Source: an uncultured Actinomycetes bacterium (GTDB lineage Bacteria > Actinomycetota > Thermoleophilia > Solirubrobacterales > 70-9). Taken from it: a stretch of 64,000 bases of DNA. Shown here one piece after another: positions 10,086 to 16,265 of this stretch (the first letter of the stretch is position 1; each line of letters begins with the position of its first letter). The stretch lies in assembly GCA_963824485.1 (NCBI GenBank), contig CAWGPH010000006.1, forward strand, positions 5,491 through 69,490, read 5' to 3'. The notes under the pieces were generated by a model, which was not told the origin of the DNA, searched no databases, and worked only from the letters and a program-made list of their open reading frames with translations. A program made the translations under genes and the position numbers.

Positions 10086-11412
10086 GTGAAGCGCTTCCAC
10101 GTCACCACCTTCGGGTGCCAGATGAACGTCCACGATTCCGAGCGGATGCGCGGCATGCTCACCTCGCTCGGCTACGAGGAGGTGGCCGAGCGAGGCGAGG
10201 CCGACCTGATCCTCTTCAACACCTGCTCGATCCGCGAGTCGGCTGACAGCCGCTTCATCGCGCATCTCGGCGAGGCGAAGCGGCTGAAGAGCGAAGACCC
10301 GGGCCGCACGGTCGGGGTCGGCGGCTGCTGGGCCCAGTCGGTCAAGGACGAGGTCTTCGAGCGCTTCCCGTTCGTCGACGTCGCCTTCGGCCCGGGCCAG
10401 ATCCACAAGCTGGCCGAGTTCCTCAACTCCGACTCGCTGACCGCCCAGGGCTACTTCGAGTTCGAGGACTTCTCCGGCCACTTGCCGGCCCGGCGCGAGC
10501 GCGAGTTCCAGGGCTGGCTGCAGATCTCCCAGGGCTGCAACTGCGTCTGCTCCTACTGCATCGTGCCCTCGACCCGCGGCCGCGAGGTCAGCCGCGACCC
10601 GGCCGAGCTGATCGCCGAGGCCGAGGCGCTGGCCGCCGACGGGGTGCGCGAGGTGACGCTGCTCGGCCAGAACGTCAACAGCTACGGCCGCGACCTGCCG
10701 CGCGAGCGCCGGCTCAGCTTCGCCGAGCTGCTCGCCCGGGTCGACGCGGTGCCCGGCATCGACCGCATCCGCTACACCAGTCCGCATCCGAAGGACATGA
10801 AGGAGGACGTGATCCGCGCCCACGCCGAGCTGCCGGCGCTCTGCGAGCAGATCCACCTGCCGCTGCAGTCGGGCTCGAGCGCGGTGCTGAAACGGATGCG
10901 GCGGACCTATGACCGCGCCCGCTACATGGACCGCGTCGCGCTGATCCGCGAGCACGTCCCCGACTGCGCGATCACCACCGACATCATCGTCGGCTTCCCG
11001 GGAGAGACCGAAGCCGACTTCGCCCAGACGCTCGAGGTCGCCGAGGAGGTCGGCTACGACGGCGCCTTCACCTTCGTCTTCAGCCCGCGCCGCGAAACCG
11101 AGGCGGCGGACGATGGACGACCAACTGCCGCACGCGGTCAAGGTCGAGCGGATGGAAAGGCTCCTCGAGGTGGTGCAGAGGCGCGCGGCGGAGCGGGCGC
11201 AGCGCTTCGTCGGGCGGACGATGGAGGTGCTAGTCGAGGGGCCGAGCCGTACCGACCCGACCAGGTTGCGGGGGCGAACGCGGCACAACAAGGCCGTCAA
11301 CTTCGAAGGGGTGGCGAGTCCGGGCGAGTTTGTCGATGTGGAGATCGAAAATGCGACTTCTCAGACGTTGGCAGGGGTGTCCGTGAGGCCCCTCTCTCAA
11401 CTTTTTCGGTGA
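10086..11412 (+). pseudogene. miaB: tRNA methylthiotransferase MiaB, reading frame broken by one extra nucleotide near 11105-11113 (true frameshift or sequence error)
   Basis: N-terminal Cys triad (FGCQMN, NTCSIRE, GGCWAQ) and the radical-SAM motif GCNCVCSYC lie in frame 0 up to FSPRRETEAA. The TRAM domain (MDDQLPHAVKVERMERL...VDVEIENAT) continues in the next frame as track ORF 11113..11412. Confidence 0.8.
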
Positions 11413-11481
11413 GGCGGATGAGGACGCACGAGGTGCGGGCAACGAAAAAGTACAAGCCGTTCGGGGCCTCACGGACACCCC
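11374..11481. repeat. Long imperfect palindrome spanning the miaB 3' end and the miaB-miaA spacer
   Basis: Perfect 19-bp arms GGGGTGTCCGTGAGGCCCC (11374-11392) and GGGGCCTCACGGACACCCC (11463-11481). A nested 9-bp pair ACTTTTTCG / CGAAAAAGT lies inside. Confidence 0.5.
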
Positions 11482-11485
11482 TGTA

Positions 11486-12211
11486 ATGGTTCTGGCCGTG
11501 TTCGGTCCCACGGGCGTGGGCAAGACCGGGGCCGCCGTATCTCTGGCTGAATTGCTGCGCGAGCGGGGCGAGGAGCCGGTGGCGATCAACTGCGATGCGC
11601 TGCAGGTGTACGAAGGGATCGACGTGCTTACCGGGGCGGCTACGGCGGCTGAGCAAGCCGTGTTGCCGCATGAGCTGCTGGGGATCGTGCCGGTGACGAG
11701 TGACTTCTCGATCGGGGACTACATGCCGCTCGCGCACGACGCGATCGATCGGGCGCTGGAGGCGGGGCGGACGCCGATCGTGGTGGGGGGGACCGGGCTC
11801 TATCTGCGGGCTGCGCTGGCTGATCTGTCGCTGAAGAAAGTGCCGGCGTTCTCGGGAGAGTCGGAGCTCTGGTCGGGGGAGACGCGGCACCCGACGCGGA
11901 TCTTCGGGCTCGATATGGACCGGGCGCGGCTCTACGAGCGGATCGACGCGCGGGTCGACGCGATCGTCGCCGGGGGCGGGGAGGAGGAGGCGCGGCGGGC
12001 CGCCGCGCTCGGAGCCGGTCGCACCGCGCGCAAAGCGCTCGGCCTGAACGAAATCCTCGCCGGCGACCTGGAGACGATGAAGCGCCGCTCCCGCAACTAC
12101 GCCCGCCGCCAGCTCACCTGGATGCGCAAAATCCCCGACTTGATCACGATCGACCGCACCGATCTCACCGACGCCGAGGTCGCAATCCGCATCCTCGACT
12201 CACTCCGTTGA
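11486..12211 (+). CDS. miaA: tRNA dimethylallyltransferase MiaA
   Basis: P-loop GPTGVGKT, DALQVYEGIDVLTGA and YARRQLTWMR, immediately downstream of miaB. Confidence 0.85.
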   Translation: MVLAVFGPTGVGKTGAAVSLAELLRERGEEPVAINCDALQVYEGIDVLTGAATAAEQAVLPHELLGIVPVTSDFSIGDYMPLAHDAIDRALEAGRTPIVVGGTGLYLRAALADLSLKKVPAFSGESELWSGETRHPTRIFGLDMDRARLYERIDARVDAIVAGGGEEEARRAAALGAGRTARKALGLNEILAGDLETMKRRSRNYARRQLTWMRKIPDLITIDRTDLTDAEVAIRILDSLR

Positions 12212-12310: not shown

Positions 12311-13156
12311 GTGAAATTTGAGAAGTGGCAGGCGCTCGGGAACGACTATCTGATCCTCGAGGGGGCGGAGCTTCCCTGGGATTTGAACTCGCAGCGGGTC
12401 GAGTGGCTGTGCGACCCGCACTTCGGGATCGGGGCGGACGGGATCCTGCTGTTGGCGCCGAGCGAGGACCCGGAGTTCGTCGCCGAGCTGCGGATCTTCA
12501 ACCCGGACGGCTCGGAGGCCGAGCTGTCCGGCAACGGCGCCCGTGAGGCGATCCTTTACCTGCGCCGCCACGGCTGGACCGACGCCGACGAGTTCGCGAT
12601 CTCGACCGTCGCCGGGCCGATCCGGCCGACGATCACCGGCGAGCTGACCTGCTCGGTCGACATGGGCAACGCCTCGACGACGTCCAAGGACTTCCCCTCC
12701 GGCGGCCCCGACGGCCGCGGCACGGTCTGCTCGGCGGGCCGCGCCTGGGAGTTCCAGCACGTCTCGATCGGCAACCCGCAGTGCGCGATCGTCGTCGACG
12801 CCGACGAGCTGGCCGACCTCGACCTGGAGGAGATCGGGCCGGAGATCGAAGCCTCAGACCTCTTCCCGAACCGCACCAACGTCTCCTTCCTCGCGGTCGA
12901 CGGCTCGACCGTCCGCGCCCGCATCTTCGAGCGCGGCGTGGGGGAGACGCTCTCCTCCGGCACCGGCGCCTCGGGCGCCGCGGTGACCGCTTTCCTCCGC
13001 GGCGCGGCCAGTCCGCTCACGGTGGAGCTCGACGGCGGCGAGCTCGCGGTCGAGATCGGCGAGGACCTGGCGGTCCGCCTCGACGGCTGGGCCGAGCCGG
13101 TCTATGCGGGCGAGGCGTCACCCGAGCTGCTCGCGGCGCTGTCCGAGCAAGACTGA
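12311..13156 (+). CDS. dapF: Diaminopimelate epimerase homologue (DapF fold) with Ser at both catalytic Cys positions
   Basis: FEKWQALGNDYLIL, FNPDGSEAELSGNGAR and FERGVGETLSSGTGA align to the DapF motifs FNADGSEVAQCGNGAR and YERGAGETQACGSGA. A GTG start at 12311 is assumed. Confidence 0.8.
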   Translation: MKFEKWQALGNDYLILEGAELPWDLNSQRVEWLCDPHFGIGADGILLLAPSEDPEFVAELRIFNPDGSEAELSGNGAREAILYLRRHGWTDADEFAISTVAGPIRPTITGELTCSVDMGNASTTSKDFPSGGPDGRGTVCSAGRAWEFQHVSIGNPQCAIVVDADELADLDLEEIGPEIEASDLFPNRTNVSFLAVDGSTVRARIFERGVGETLSSGTGASGAAVTAFLRGAASPLTVELDGGELAVEIGEDLAVRLDGWAEPVYAGEASPELLAALSEQD

Positions 13157-14358
13157 TGGGCCTGGCTTCCAATAATCTCTCCGCGCCCATGGGCATCGCC
13201 GAGCCATCGAAGCGCCTGCAGGCGATCCCGCCCTACATGTTTCAGGAACTGGAGCGCCGGATCGCCGAGAAGCGGGCTGCCGGCATCGACGTGATCAGCC
13301 TCGGGATCGGCGATCCCGACCAGCCGACCTACCCTTACATCGTCGAGGCGATGCAGGCGGCGGTCGCCGATCCGGCCACCCACCAGTACCCCTCGAACCG
13401 CGGCCGTGAGGACTTCCGCGAGGAGTTCGCGAACTTCTACGACCGGCGCTTCGGGGTCGAGATCGACCCGGCGAACGAGGTGATCCCGGCGATCGGCGCC
13501 AAGGAGTGCGTCTACAACCTCTGCAACGCCTTCCTCGACCCGGGCGACGTGGCGCTCGCCTCCGACCCCGGCTACCCGGTCTACACCGGCGGCCCGCTGC
13601 TGCACGGTGCCACCGCCGAGCTGCTGCCGCTGCTCCCGGAGAAGGGCTTCGCGCCCGACCTGGGCGCCGTCTCCGCCGAGGCCGCCGCCAAGGCTCGCCT
13701 GATGTTCATCAACTACCCGAACAACCCGACCGGCGCGGTCGTCCCCGACGGGTTCTTCGCCGAAGTCGTCGACTTCGCCCGCGAGCACGAGATCCTCGTC
13801 GTCCACGACAACGCCTACTCGGAGACGACCTACGATGGCTACGTCGCGCCCAGCTTCCTCGCGACGCCGGGCGCCAAGGAGGTCGGGGTCGAGGTCTTCT
13901 CGCTCTCCAAGGGCTACAACATGACCGGCTGGCGGGTCGGCGCGATCCTCGGCCACCCCGACGCGATCCAGTCCTACTGGCGGCTCAAGACCAACGTCGA
14001 CTCCGGCCTCTTCGAGGCGATCCAGATTGCCGCCGTGGCGGCGCTGCAGGGCCCGCCCGAGCCGCTCGCCGAGCAGAACGCCACCTACCTTCGCCGCCGC
14101 GACCTGGTCGTCTCGGCGCTCAGTGCGATCGGCGTCGAGGTCACCCCACCGAAGGGCACGATCTACGTCTGGGCTCCGGTCCCGAGCGGCCACACCTCAA
14201 CCTCCTTCGCCGAGACCGTCCTCGAAGAGGCAGCGGTGGTCGTCTCACCCGGCTCGATGTACGGGCCGAGCGGCGAGGGCTTTTTCCGCATCTCGCTGAC
14301 CGCCCCCGACGACCGGATCGAAGAGGCCGTCGAGCGGATGCGCGAGCACCTCGCCTAG
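13156..14358 (+). CDS. Class I PLP-dependent aminotransferase, probably LL-diaminopimelate aminotransferase
   Basis: AIPPYMFQELERR, INYPNNPTG and the PLP-lysine motif SLSKGYNMTGWRVG. The start overlaps the dapF stop (TGATG). Confidence 0.8.
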   Translation: MGLASNNLSAPMGIAEPSKRLQAIPPYMFQELERRIAEKRAAGIDVISLGIGDPDQPTYPYIVEAMQAAVADPATHQYPSNRGREDFREEFANFYDRRFGVEIDPANEVIPAIGAKECVYNLCNAFLDPGDVALASDPGYPVYTGGPLLHGATAELLPLLPEKGFAPDLGAVSAEAAAKARLMFINYPNNPTGAVVPDGFFAEVVDFAREHEILVVHDNAYSETTYDGYVAPSFLATPGAKEVGVEVFSLSKGYNMTGWRVGAILGHPDAIQSYWRLKTNVDSGLFEAIQIAAVAALQGPPEPLAEQNATYLRRRDLVVSALSAIGVEVTPPKGTIYVWAPVPSGHTSTSFAETVLEEAAVVVSPGSMYGPSGEGFFRISLTAPDDRIEEAVERMREHLA

Positions 14359-14367
14359 CGCCTCCGC

Positions 14368-14406
14368 GTTCGCACTTATCGTCGGATAGCGACGATAAGT
14401 GCGAAC
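14368..14406. repeat. 39-bp hairpin repeat family 1, copy A (loop GATAG, inverted orientation)
   Basis: GTTCGCACTTATCGTCG-GATAG-CGACGATAAGTGCGAAC with a perfect 17-bp stem, between convergent genes. Confidence 0.8.
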
Positions 14407-14418
14407 TCACCGCGGGCG

Positions 14419-15256
14419 CTAGGTCTCGCGCTCGGCTTTCTTGCGCCAGTAGCGGTCGAGGCCGGCCCACTGGTAGGCGGTCGGCACGGCCTGGAACATC
14501 TCCGCCGCCGTCTCCGGGTCGAGCTGGGCGGCGATCCGCCGCTGCAGGTCGGCCTCGTAGGTCTCCTCGTCCATACCGCGGGCCAGCTCGGCCTCCTCGC
14601 GGAGGCGGCGCCTCGCCGCGGCGAGGTGGGCGGCGAGGGTCGTCGACGGGGCCGAAGTGGGTGAGGGCGAGCCGCTCGGGCGCCCAGGCCTCGACCGTGG
14701 AGATCGACTCTTCCCAGAGCTCGACGTCGATGTCGGGGGGCGGGGTCGGCGGGATCACCAGGTCGGTCGGCGGGATGCGGCAGGCGGCGACGTCGCCGAC
14801 GAAGGCGGTGCCGGTCTCCTCGTGGAGGTAGCAGACGTGGTGCGAGGCGTGGCCGGGGGTGTAGGCGACGCGCATGCCGCGGACGATCTCGCCGCCCGCC
14901 AGCGTCGTCACGTTCGCCTCGGGGACCGGCTGGATCCTGCCCCAGAGGTACTCGAGTTTGTCGCCGTAGAGGCGCTCGGCGCTGGCCAGCAGGCGCGAGG
15001 AGTCGATCAGGTGCGGGGCGCCGCGCTCGTGGACGTAGACCGGCAGGTCGGGCCAGCGGGCGACCATCGCGCCGGTCGCGGCGGCGTGGTCGAGGTGGAT
15101 ATGGGTGAGCAGGATCGCCTCGGGCCGCTCGTCCCCGAGCTTCGCCAGCAGGGTGGGGAGGGAGGACTCGGGCCCGGGATCGACCAGCAGCCCGTCTACC
15201 TCCCAACAGCCGATCACGTGCGGACGGCCGAGGTGCTCGACATCGATCACTCGCAT
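14419..15256 (-). pseudogene. MBL-fold hydrolase, frame broken by one extra nucleotide near 14636-14641 (true frameshift or sequence error)
   Basis: LLTHIHLDHAAATG and TPGHASHH lie in one frame up to THFGPVDD. The plausible C-terminus (LAAHLAAARRRLREEAELARGMDEETYEADLQ...YQWAGLDRYWRKKAERET) is in the adjacent frame and ends at TAG 14419-14421. Confidence 0.7.
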
Positions 15257-15266
15257 CGAGCGGAGC

Positions 15267-16265
15267 CTATGCAGCGGCGGTGCCGGCCGGCAGCCTGCCT
15301 TCGGCCTCGAGCAGTGCGCGCAGGCCCTCTTCGAGGCCACGCGGCTGGTAGCCGAGCTCCCGGGTCGCCTTGTCGTGGCTCGCCCAGAGGGTGACGCCGT
15401 CGGCGGAGGAGATCAGCTCGCGCAGGTTGGGCGGCTGACCCATCAATTTGCCGACCAGCGGGCCGATCGGGATCATCGCCTTCATCAGCCCGGTCGGCAG
15501 CGCGTGTTTCGGCGCCTTCTTGCCGGTCTCGGCGGCGACCACGCCGATCGCCTCGCGCACGGTCGTCACCGGGCCGCTGATGATGTAGGCCTCGCCGACC
15601 TTGCCTTTGTCGAGCGCGAGGATGATCCCGGCGGCGATGTCCTCGACGTGGCTGAGGCAGATGCCCAGCTCGGGGAAGGGCATCAGCGGCATCTTGCCGC
15701 TCAGAAACTGGTCGAGGAGGACGCCGATCGAGGAGGTGTCGCCGGGCCCGTAGACGCCGCCCGGCTGGACGATCACGCAGGGGAGCCCTTCGCCGATCAG
15801 CTTCTTCGCCACCTGATGGGCTTCCCACTTCGTCTTCTCGTACTCAGAGGTGAAGCTGTCGGCGGGGTGCTCGTAGCTCTCGTCGACGACCTGGCCATGG
15901 GTGTTGCCGAAGGCGCCGACGGTCGAGACGTAGACGACCTTGGCGATTTTCGCCTCCAGCGCCGCGCCGAGCACCCGTTCGGTGCCACCGACGTTCGCTT
16001 CGCGCATCGACTGCCGCTCGCTCGCCGGGATCCCGACCTCGTAGACGGCCGCGGCGTGGATCACCGCGTCGCATCCCCCCATGCCGGCGCGGATCGCCCG
16101 TTCGTCGTTCAGGTCGCCAGGGACCAGGGTGCAGCCGAGATCCTCCAGTGGCGCGGCTTTGGCGGGGGTGCGCACCAGCGCCACGACATCGTCACCACGG
16201 GCGCGCAGCTGGCGCACCACGGCACCGCCGATGAAACCCGTCCCTCCGGTGACGAAGACCTTCAC
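15267..16265 (-). CDS. NAD-dependent epimerase/dehydratase (extended SDR)
   Basis: VKVFVTGGTGFIGG Rossmann motif and YEKTK (YxxxK). A GTG start at 16265 is assumed. Confidence 0.8.
   Translation of the reverse strand: MKVFVTGGTGFIGGAVVRQLRARGDDVVALVRTPAKAAPLEDLGCTLVPGDLNDERAIRAGMGGCDAVIHAAAVYEVGIPASERQSMREANVGGTERVLGAALEAKIAKVVYVSTVGAFGNTHGQVVDESYEHPADSFTSEYEKTKWEAHQVAKKLIGEGLPCVIVQPGGVYGPGDTSSIGVLLDQFLSGKMPLMPFPELGICLSHVEDIAAGIILALDKGKVGEAYIISGPVTTVREAIGVVAAETGKKAPKHALPTGLMKAMIPIGPLVGKLMGQPPNLRELISSADGVTLWASHDKATRELGYQPRGLEEGLRALLEAEGRLPAGTAAA

Follow-up and report, generated by a model that had tools for sequence, protein, structure and literature searches.

Serine at both catalytic cysteine positions of a diaminopimelate epimerase in Solirubrobacterales

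The canonical diaminopimelate epimerases (DapF, EC 5.1.1.7), for which structures from E. coli (4ijz), H. influenzae (1gqz/2gke), Anabaena (9mro) and A. thaliana (3ejx) are available, carry two catalytic cysteines, Cys73 and Cys217. Exchange of cysteine for serine in these enzymes and in related epimerases hinders catalysis and favours the open form (PMC12039745). Natural DapFs with serine at both positions (Ser/Ser) have also been published. According to Lamer et al. (2025, J Mol Biol 437:169375, PMID 40774471), whose work is related in a 2026 P. aeruginosa DapF paper (PMC13728532), Ser/Ser DapFs are active epimerases with the same fold, and the Ser/Ser DapF of Anabaena sp. YBS01 is inactivated when serine is replaced by cysteine. 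In the account of the citing paper, this strain possesses a DapF of each type, Cys/Cys and Ser/Ser, possibly against oxidative stress (PMC13728532). The Ser/Ser DapF is thus a known kind of enzyme, with bench work from 2025 according to that account, and the gene described here is another member. The likeness to the enzymes of Lamer et al., in the DapF fold and the Ser/Ser pair, is drawn from the description in PMC13728532. In Anabaena, as described there, the Ser/Ser enzyme stands beside a Cys/Cys DapF, whereas in the genome studied here it is the only DapF found.

The window analysed is a stretch of 64,000 nucleotides from an uncultured Actinomycetes bacterium (GenBank assembly GCA_963824485.1, contig CAWGPH010000006.1). 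Close homologues carry names that assign the organism to the order Solirubrobacterales of the class Thermoleophilia. Its open reading frames include an intact dapF frame of 281 amino acids at positions 12311-13156 on the forward strand, initiated by GTG at 12311 and terminated by TGA. Support for the GTG start comes from the Conexibacter woesei protein WP_012934725.1, which begins with MKFEKWQ at the equivalent position, exactly as had been predicted beforehand. A longer, ATG-initiated frame from 12245 was considered as well and is improbable as the true gene; homologues start at the equivalent M/V-K/R-F-E-K-W. The product reaches 188.6 bits against the DapF equivalog model TIGR00652 (cut-off 114.65), with residues 1-269 of 281 covered, and Pfam returns PF01678 alone, matching in two stretches (E 1.7e-40), with no match to the proline racemase-like family PF05544. 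Judged by the TIGR00652 match and the PF01678 repeats, the protein is a full-length member of the DapF family, and the clear alignment with diaminopimelate epimerase that an earlier note on this DNA had claimed is borne out.

In place of the canonical thiol/thiolate cysteine pair, the protein has Ser73 (TCC, 12527-12529, forward strand) and Ser216 (TCC, 12956-12958, forward strand), within the motifs FNPDGSEAEL-S-GNGAR and ERGVGETLS-S-GTGA. HMMER alignments with the solved DapFs 9mro, 5ha4 and 3ejx set Ser73 opposite the cysteine of EMCGNG, the first catalytic position (Cys73 of E. coli and H. influenzae), and Ser216 opposite the cysteine of LACGTG, the second (Cys217). Both serines are invariant in an alignment of 46 Ser/Ser sequences. 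The same two replacements, with these motifs, codons and coordinates, had been read in the earlier note, and proper alignment with the solved enzymes agrees with that reading. The enzyme of the window therefore falls outside the canonical thiol subclass. The single mutants C73S (2q9h) and C217S (2q9j) of H. influenzae DapF likewise have a serine at a catalytic position within the same fold. They are, however, single engineered changes, whereas the protein of the window combines serines at both positions with further co-substitutions and is under purifying selection.

Could the serines stem from an error in sequencing or assembly, or from a decaying pseudogene? Two apparent single-base frameshifts elsewhere in the window suggest that the assembly contains some errors, but at the catalytic positions there are two substitutions and no indels, the reading frame is unbroken and the motifs do not vary. 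A survey of relatives, which the earlier note had proposed, found Ser/Ser in the best 120 of 120 database homologues, carrying NPDGSEAELSGNG and ERGVGETLSSGTG, and in all 129 loci that were read. Of these loci, 110 are from Solirubrobacterales (30 from whole-genome searches of the order, covering six families, and 80 from named MAG records), seven are from the class families f9 and f13, and 12 are further loci of Solirubrobacteraceae. Altogether, the same state occurs in more than 240 genomes of many projects. Five different serine codons are used: across 121 loci, position 73 is encoded by TCC (68), TCG (49), TCT (3) or TCA (1), and position 216 by TCC (69), TCG (44), AGC (5) or TCT (3). This variety of codons points to a long-fixed residue under purifying selection and not to error, in line with the doubt that the earlier note had cast on a sequencing error. 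We therefore give the artefact reading a negligible probability and regard it as already refuted by the comparative data. On the loci read, the Ser/Ser state is to be considered genuine and fixed throughout the order Solirubrobacterales.

The predicted structure agrees with the family assignment. An AlphaFold2 model built on the 46-sequence alignment has a mean pLDDT of 91.9, and its predicted helices 74-86 and 217-229 start directly after Ser73 and Ser216, so that in the model both serines lie at the N-terminal ends of helices, as the catalytic cysteines of DapF do. Foldseek aligned the model with the solved DapFs 9mro, 8qzy, 4ijz and 5ha4 at TM scores of 0.85-0.88. PhzF and the proline-racemase-like proteins are distant in the same search, the hydroxyproline epimerase/3-hydroxyproline dehydratase type showing 12-18% identity and a TM score of about 0.7. 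The model thus displays the pseudo-symmetric two-domain alpha/beta fold of DapF. Residues N11, N64, G74, N75, N155, N190, E207, R208 and G217 do not vary within the 46-sequence Ser/Ser alignment, and the window protein also has T218. We take the corresponding DAP-binding set, known from H. influenzae complexes, to be N11, N64, G74, N75, N157, N190, E208, R209, G218 and S/T219 in E. coli numbering. A search of the PDB with either Ser/Ser type as query found no structure of a natural Ser/Ser DapF.

Compared with the canonical Cys/Cys enzymes named above, the window protein has 29-35% full-length identity and its model a TM score of 0.8-0.88, and the substrate-binding residues and the position in the pathway are the same. 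The differences lie in and around the active site. Apart from the two serines for Cys73 and Cys217, the histidine of the GNPH motif is replaced by glutamine, Glu192 by serine, WERG by FERG, Ala215 by serine and Ala222 by glycine.

The dapF gene is embedded in a conserved neighbourhood. Its stop overlaps the start of dapL in a TGATG junction at 13154-13158, and the product of dapL (13156-14358, forward strand) matches PF00155 and the LL-diaminopimelate aminotransferase model NF006756 with 534.8 bits (cut-off 507); the coupling of dapF to a DapL-type aminotransferase had been described in the same way in the earlier note. Upstream lies miaA (tRNA isopentenyltransferase, PF01715; 11486-12211, forward strand). 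Among 121 related loci, dapL is found directly downstream of dapF in 109, miaA upstream on the same strand in 100, and the full order miaA-dapF-dapL in 91. The frame of miaB (10086-11486, forward strand) becomes Arg/Gly-rich after about residue 340, with a break around 11100-11115, and a 99-aa ORF in another frame (11113-11412) holds a protein-like C-terminal tail of miaB, which is consistent with a single-base frame break in the sequence. The ORF of an MBL-fold hydrolase (14141-15340, reverse strand) ends Arg/Pro/Gly-rich and may represent a second assembly error of the indel type.

The genome from which the window derives (3.02 Mb in 10 contigs, 92.4% complete) encodes LysA (426 bits) and MurE (502 bits), the latter with a DNPR motif, which we take to be typical of DAP-adding enzymes. 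The genes dapB and dapA are located just upstream of the window, which starts at C6:5491. They are present twice, at C6:3600-5163 and C5:16343-17906; the two dapA copies score the same and the dapB pieces match, which points to duplication of a contig end or to redundancy in the assembly and not to true paralogues. Profile scans with TIGR00652 and PF01678 found no second DapF in the 92.4%-complete genome, but a single match and two 13-bit matches that we consider noise.

Three ways in which the organism might dispense with an epimerase of this type were considered and rejected. A bypass through meso-DAP dehydrogenase (Ddh) was ruled out; the enzyme was found neither in the window's genome nor in five cultured relatives, the best score being 22.9 bits (cut-off 180.6). 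A bypass through a PLP-type DapF2/Alr2-like racemase, such as the DapF2 described in PMC13759103, was likewise rejected: the PF01168 search of the window's genome yielded three proteins (Alr, a YggS-family protein and a D-threonine-aldolase-like protein), none of which is a candidate. Finally, a cell wall built with LL-DAP, which would need no epimerase, is at odds with the meso-DAP chemotaxonomy of the order, the DNPR motif of MurE and the need of LysA for meso-DAP. According to its gene content, dapF would be the only recognisable route in this genome between the LL-DAP formed by DapL and meso-DAP.

The relatives present the same picture. In the genome paper of C. woesei, meso-DAP is given as the diagnostic diamino acid at position 3 for all Solirubrobacterales (PMC3035278), and it has also been found in Solirubrobacter (PMC10722151). 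Ser/Ser is the state of the only DapF in Conexibacter woesei, Solirubrobacter pauli, S. soli, Patulibacter minatonensis, Baekduia alba and Capillimicrobium parvum, and in the five of these genomes that were searched, those of all but Capillimicrobium parvum, LysA was found and Ddh was not. In the closed chromosome of C. woesei (6,359,369 bp), WP_012934725.1 is the sole DapF at the level of the HMM search. A sole DapF of the Ser/Ser type together with meso-DAP walls means that such organisms demonstrably make meso-DAP.

A conventional Cys/Cys DapF might nevertheless lie on the unassembled part of the genome, about 8%, in which case the Ser/Ser gene would be an accessory paralogue, a situation like that of Anabaena sp. 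YBS01. Besides the incompleteness of the genome, this reading can draw on Anabaena itself, which has both types by the account in PMC13728532, and on family f4 of the same order, which has an extra divergent Cys/Cys paralogue. We consider it very unlikely all the same. Every one of the 138 Solirubrobacteraceae genomes examined (at least 95% complete), including the closed C. woesei chromosome, has a DapF match, scoring about 150-210 bits in 136 of them. The matches fall in one place in 133, the other five having split or duplicated contigs, and among the matches listed for these 138 genomes there is none of a second type. Of the 24 other genomes searched from the genus of the window organism, 23 contain a single match and one contains none. 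The Ser/Ser gene, moreover, occupies the conserved miaA-dapF-dapL position. In family f4, the second DapF homologue (about 130 bits against TIGR00652) occurs beside the Ser/Ser gene; copies were seen at G032:C1:250631-251383 (L130) and G027:C3:87020-87772 (L129), and L130 keeps both cysteines (EMCGNG, LGCATG). This two-gene state mirrors that of Anabaena sp. YBS01, with one Cys/Cys and one Ser/Ser DapF.

Another reading is that the protein has changed its function and acts as a dehydratase or eliminase, after the model of the hydroxyproline dehydratases among the proline-racemase-like enzymes, in which cysteine is replaced by threonine or serine, or as a non-catalytic DAP-binding or moonlighting protein, with meso-DAP being supplied by an unrecognised enzyme. 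The hindered catalysis of Cys-to-Ser variants of canonical DapF and related epimerases (PMC12039745) speaks for such a change, as do the loss of the GNPH histidine in the Solirubrobacterales clade and a TIGR00652 score, about 185 bits, below that of the Cys/Cys DapFs of Thermoleophilia (204-279 bits). We find this reading quite unlikely, however. The DAP-binding residues are all invariant, the coupling to dapL is tight and conserved, and PF05544 gives no match. Neither Ddh nor a second DapF nor a DapF2-like racemase was found, yet the relatives possess LysA, a MurE of the DNPR type and walls with meso-DAP. Natural Ser/Ser DapFs, furthermore, have been published as active, as related in PMC13728532.

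The earlier note had left three options for the gene, namely a serine-based chemistry, a different activity, or a canonical dapF elsewhere in the genome. The first gains support from the characterised Ser/Ser DapFs described in PMC13728532. The second is unlikely in view of the invariant DAP-binding residues, the dapL coupling in 109 of 121 loci, the requirement for meso-DAP and the lack of Ddh in the genomes searched, and the third does not agree with the single TIGR00652/PF01678 match in the genome, nor with the matches listed for the 138 Solirubrobacteraceae genomes.

We therefore posit that dapF of the window very probably encodes a working housekeeping LL/meso-DAP epimerase that uses a Ser/Ser pair. 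We infer its catalytic competence from the logic of the pathway, the presence of meso-DAP in the walls of cultured relatives and the activity published for other natural Ser/Ser DapFs. DapL, co-translated with DapF, would make LL-DAP; DapF would interconvert LL-DAP and meso-DAP, and LysA and MurE would consume the latter. The enzyme would operate by the usual two-base 1,1-proton-transfer mechanism within the usual fold, the acid/base pair being formed by Ser73 and Ser216. Activity is carried over from the published Ser/Ser enzymes by inference, because the Solirubrobacterales clade is without the GNPH histidine that the other Ser/Ser groups keep.

This loss is one of the residue changes that mark the clade. 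Gln157 (CAG, 12779-12781, forward strand), which turns GNPH into GNPQC, is a clade-specific co-substitution present in 19 of 19 Solirubrobacterales-type sequences and in none of 32 Cys/Cys sequences; histidine is found in all 32 of the latter and in the other Ser/Ser groups. The histidine is His159 in E. coli numbering. Further changes separating the clade from the sampled Cys/Cys enzymes are Glu192 to Ser, Trp206 to Phe (WERG to FERG), Ala215 to Ser and Ala222 to Gly; position 192 is Gln in family f9 and in the multi-phylum Ser/Ser group described below. One may speculate that Gln157 and Ser192, in place of His and Glu, retune the electrostatics of the active site or a proton relay for alkoxide chemistry. 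Equally speculative is a benefit of the Ser/Ser pair through immunity to the disulfide formation between the two cysteines that inactivates canonical DapFs.

The Ser/Ser state is not a property of the entire class. A reading in which all Thermoleophilia are Ser/Ser was rejected, with families f7, f8, f10, f11 and f12 being Cys/Cys (TIGR00652 204-279 bits), and Ser/Ser being confined among the families sampled to those of Solirubrobacterales and to f9 and f13. A Gaiellales cluster (MAG proteins P0215 and P0302) has a mixed Ser/Cys pair (VSGNG … QACGSG) and may represent an intermediate stage of evolution or a variant that works in one direction.

Outside the class, a profile-free search of 1.8 billion representatives retrieved another large Ser/Ser group, which is marked by the motifs EAEKSGNGL … GNPHC … WERGAGYTLASGSS. 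Its members bear the names of Methylomirabilota, Planctomycetes, Verrucomicrobia, KSB1 and Deltaproteobacteria, and the best 120 of 120 matches to a profile of this group have the Lys-Ser … Ser pattern. Like the window protein, with which they share about 40% identity, these proteins are Ser/Ser and annotated as DapF; unlike it, they have a lysine before the first serine, keep the GNPH histidine and have Gln and not Ser at position 192. Domains of the EKSGNG type were also seen as the C-terminal part of longer proteins (P0190, 757 aa; P0234 and P0241, 453 aa), which could be fusions or run-ons of the gene calls.

A quick maximum-likelihood tree of 85 sequences was calculated, with the catalytic columns kept in and with no root other than the midpoint. 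It unites the Solirubrobacterales-type enzymes in a starred clade (99*) and the multi-phylum Ser/Ser group in a second one (100*), which is sister to a Cys/Cys clade, with a support of 91 that is not starred. From the starred branches it follows that the state changed at least twice between Cys/Cys and Ser/Ser. It is conceivable, though we advance this only tentatively and at somewhat less than even odds, that the Ser/Ser DapF of Solirubrobacterales represents an independent second thiol-free origin that does not descend from the multi-phylum or published type, and that it serves with a distinct active site as the sole essential epimerase throughout an order whose walls contain meso-DAP. If true, serine-based carbon-acid chemistry would have arisen on one scaffold in at least two different ways.

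As a discovery the finding is slight, with natural Ser/Ser DapFs already published together with their biochemistry, according to the account in PMC13728532. What it may add to the known kind is a Ser/Ser enzyme that is the single DapF throughout an order whose walls contain meso-DAP, and possibly an independent origin with a distinct active site in which Gln replaces His. For annotation, the genes in Solirubrobacterales and some other Thermoleophilia are better called functional dapF than pseudogenes or neo-functionalised genes. Inhibitors directed at the cysteines of DapF, such as aziridino-DAP and thiol reagents, would not be expected to act on Ser/Ser DapFs. With its sole gene copy, meso-DAP walls and His-to-Gln co-substitution, the clade provides natural material for studying, by comparison, the retuning of an active site from thiolate to alkoxide. 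We may further speculate that the Ser/Ser pair has a bearing on resistance to oxidative disulfide inactivation in these aerobic, desiccation-exposed soil bacteria, similar to the idea put forward for Anabaena in the account of PMC13728532.
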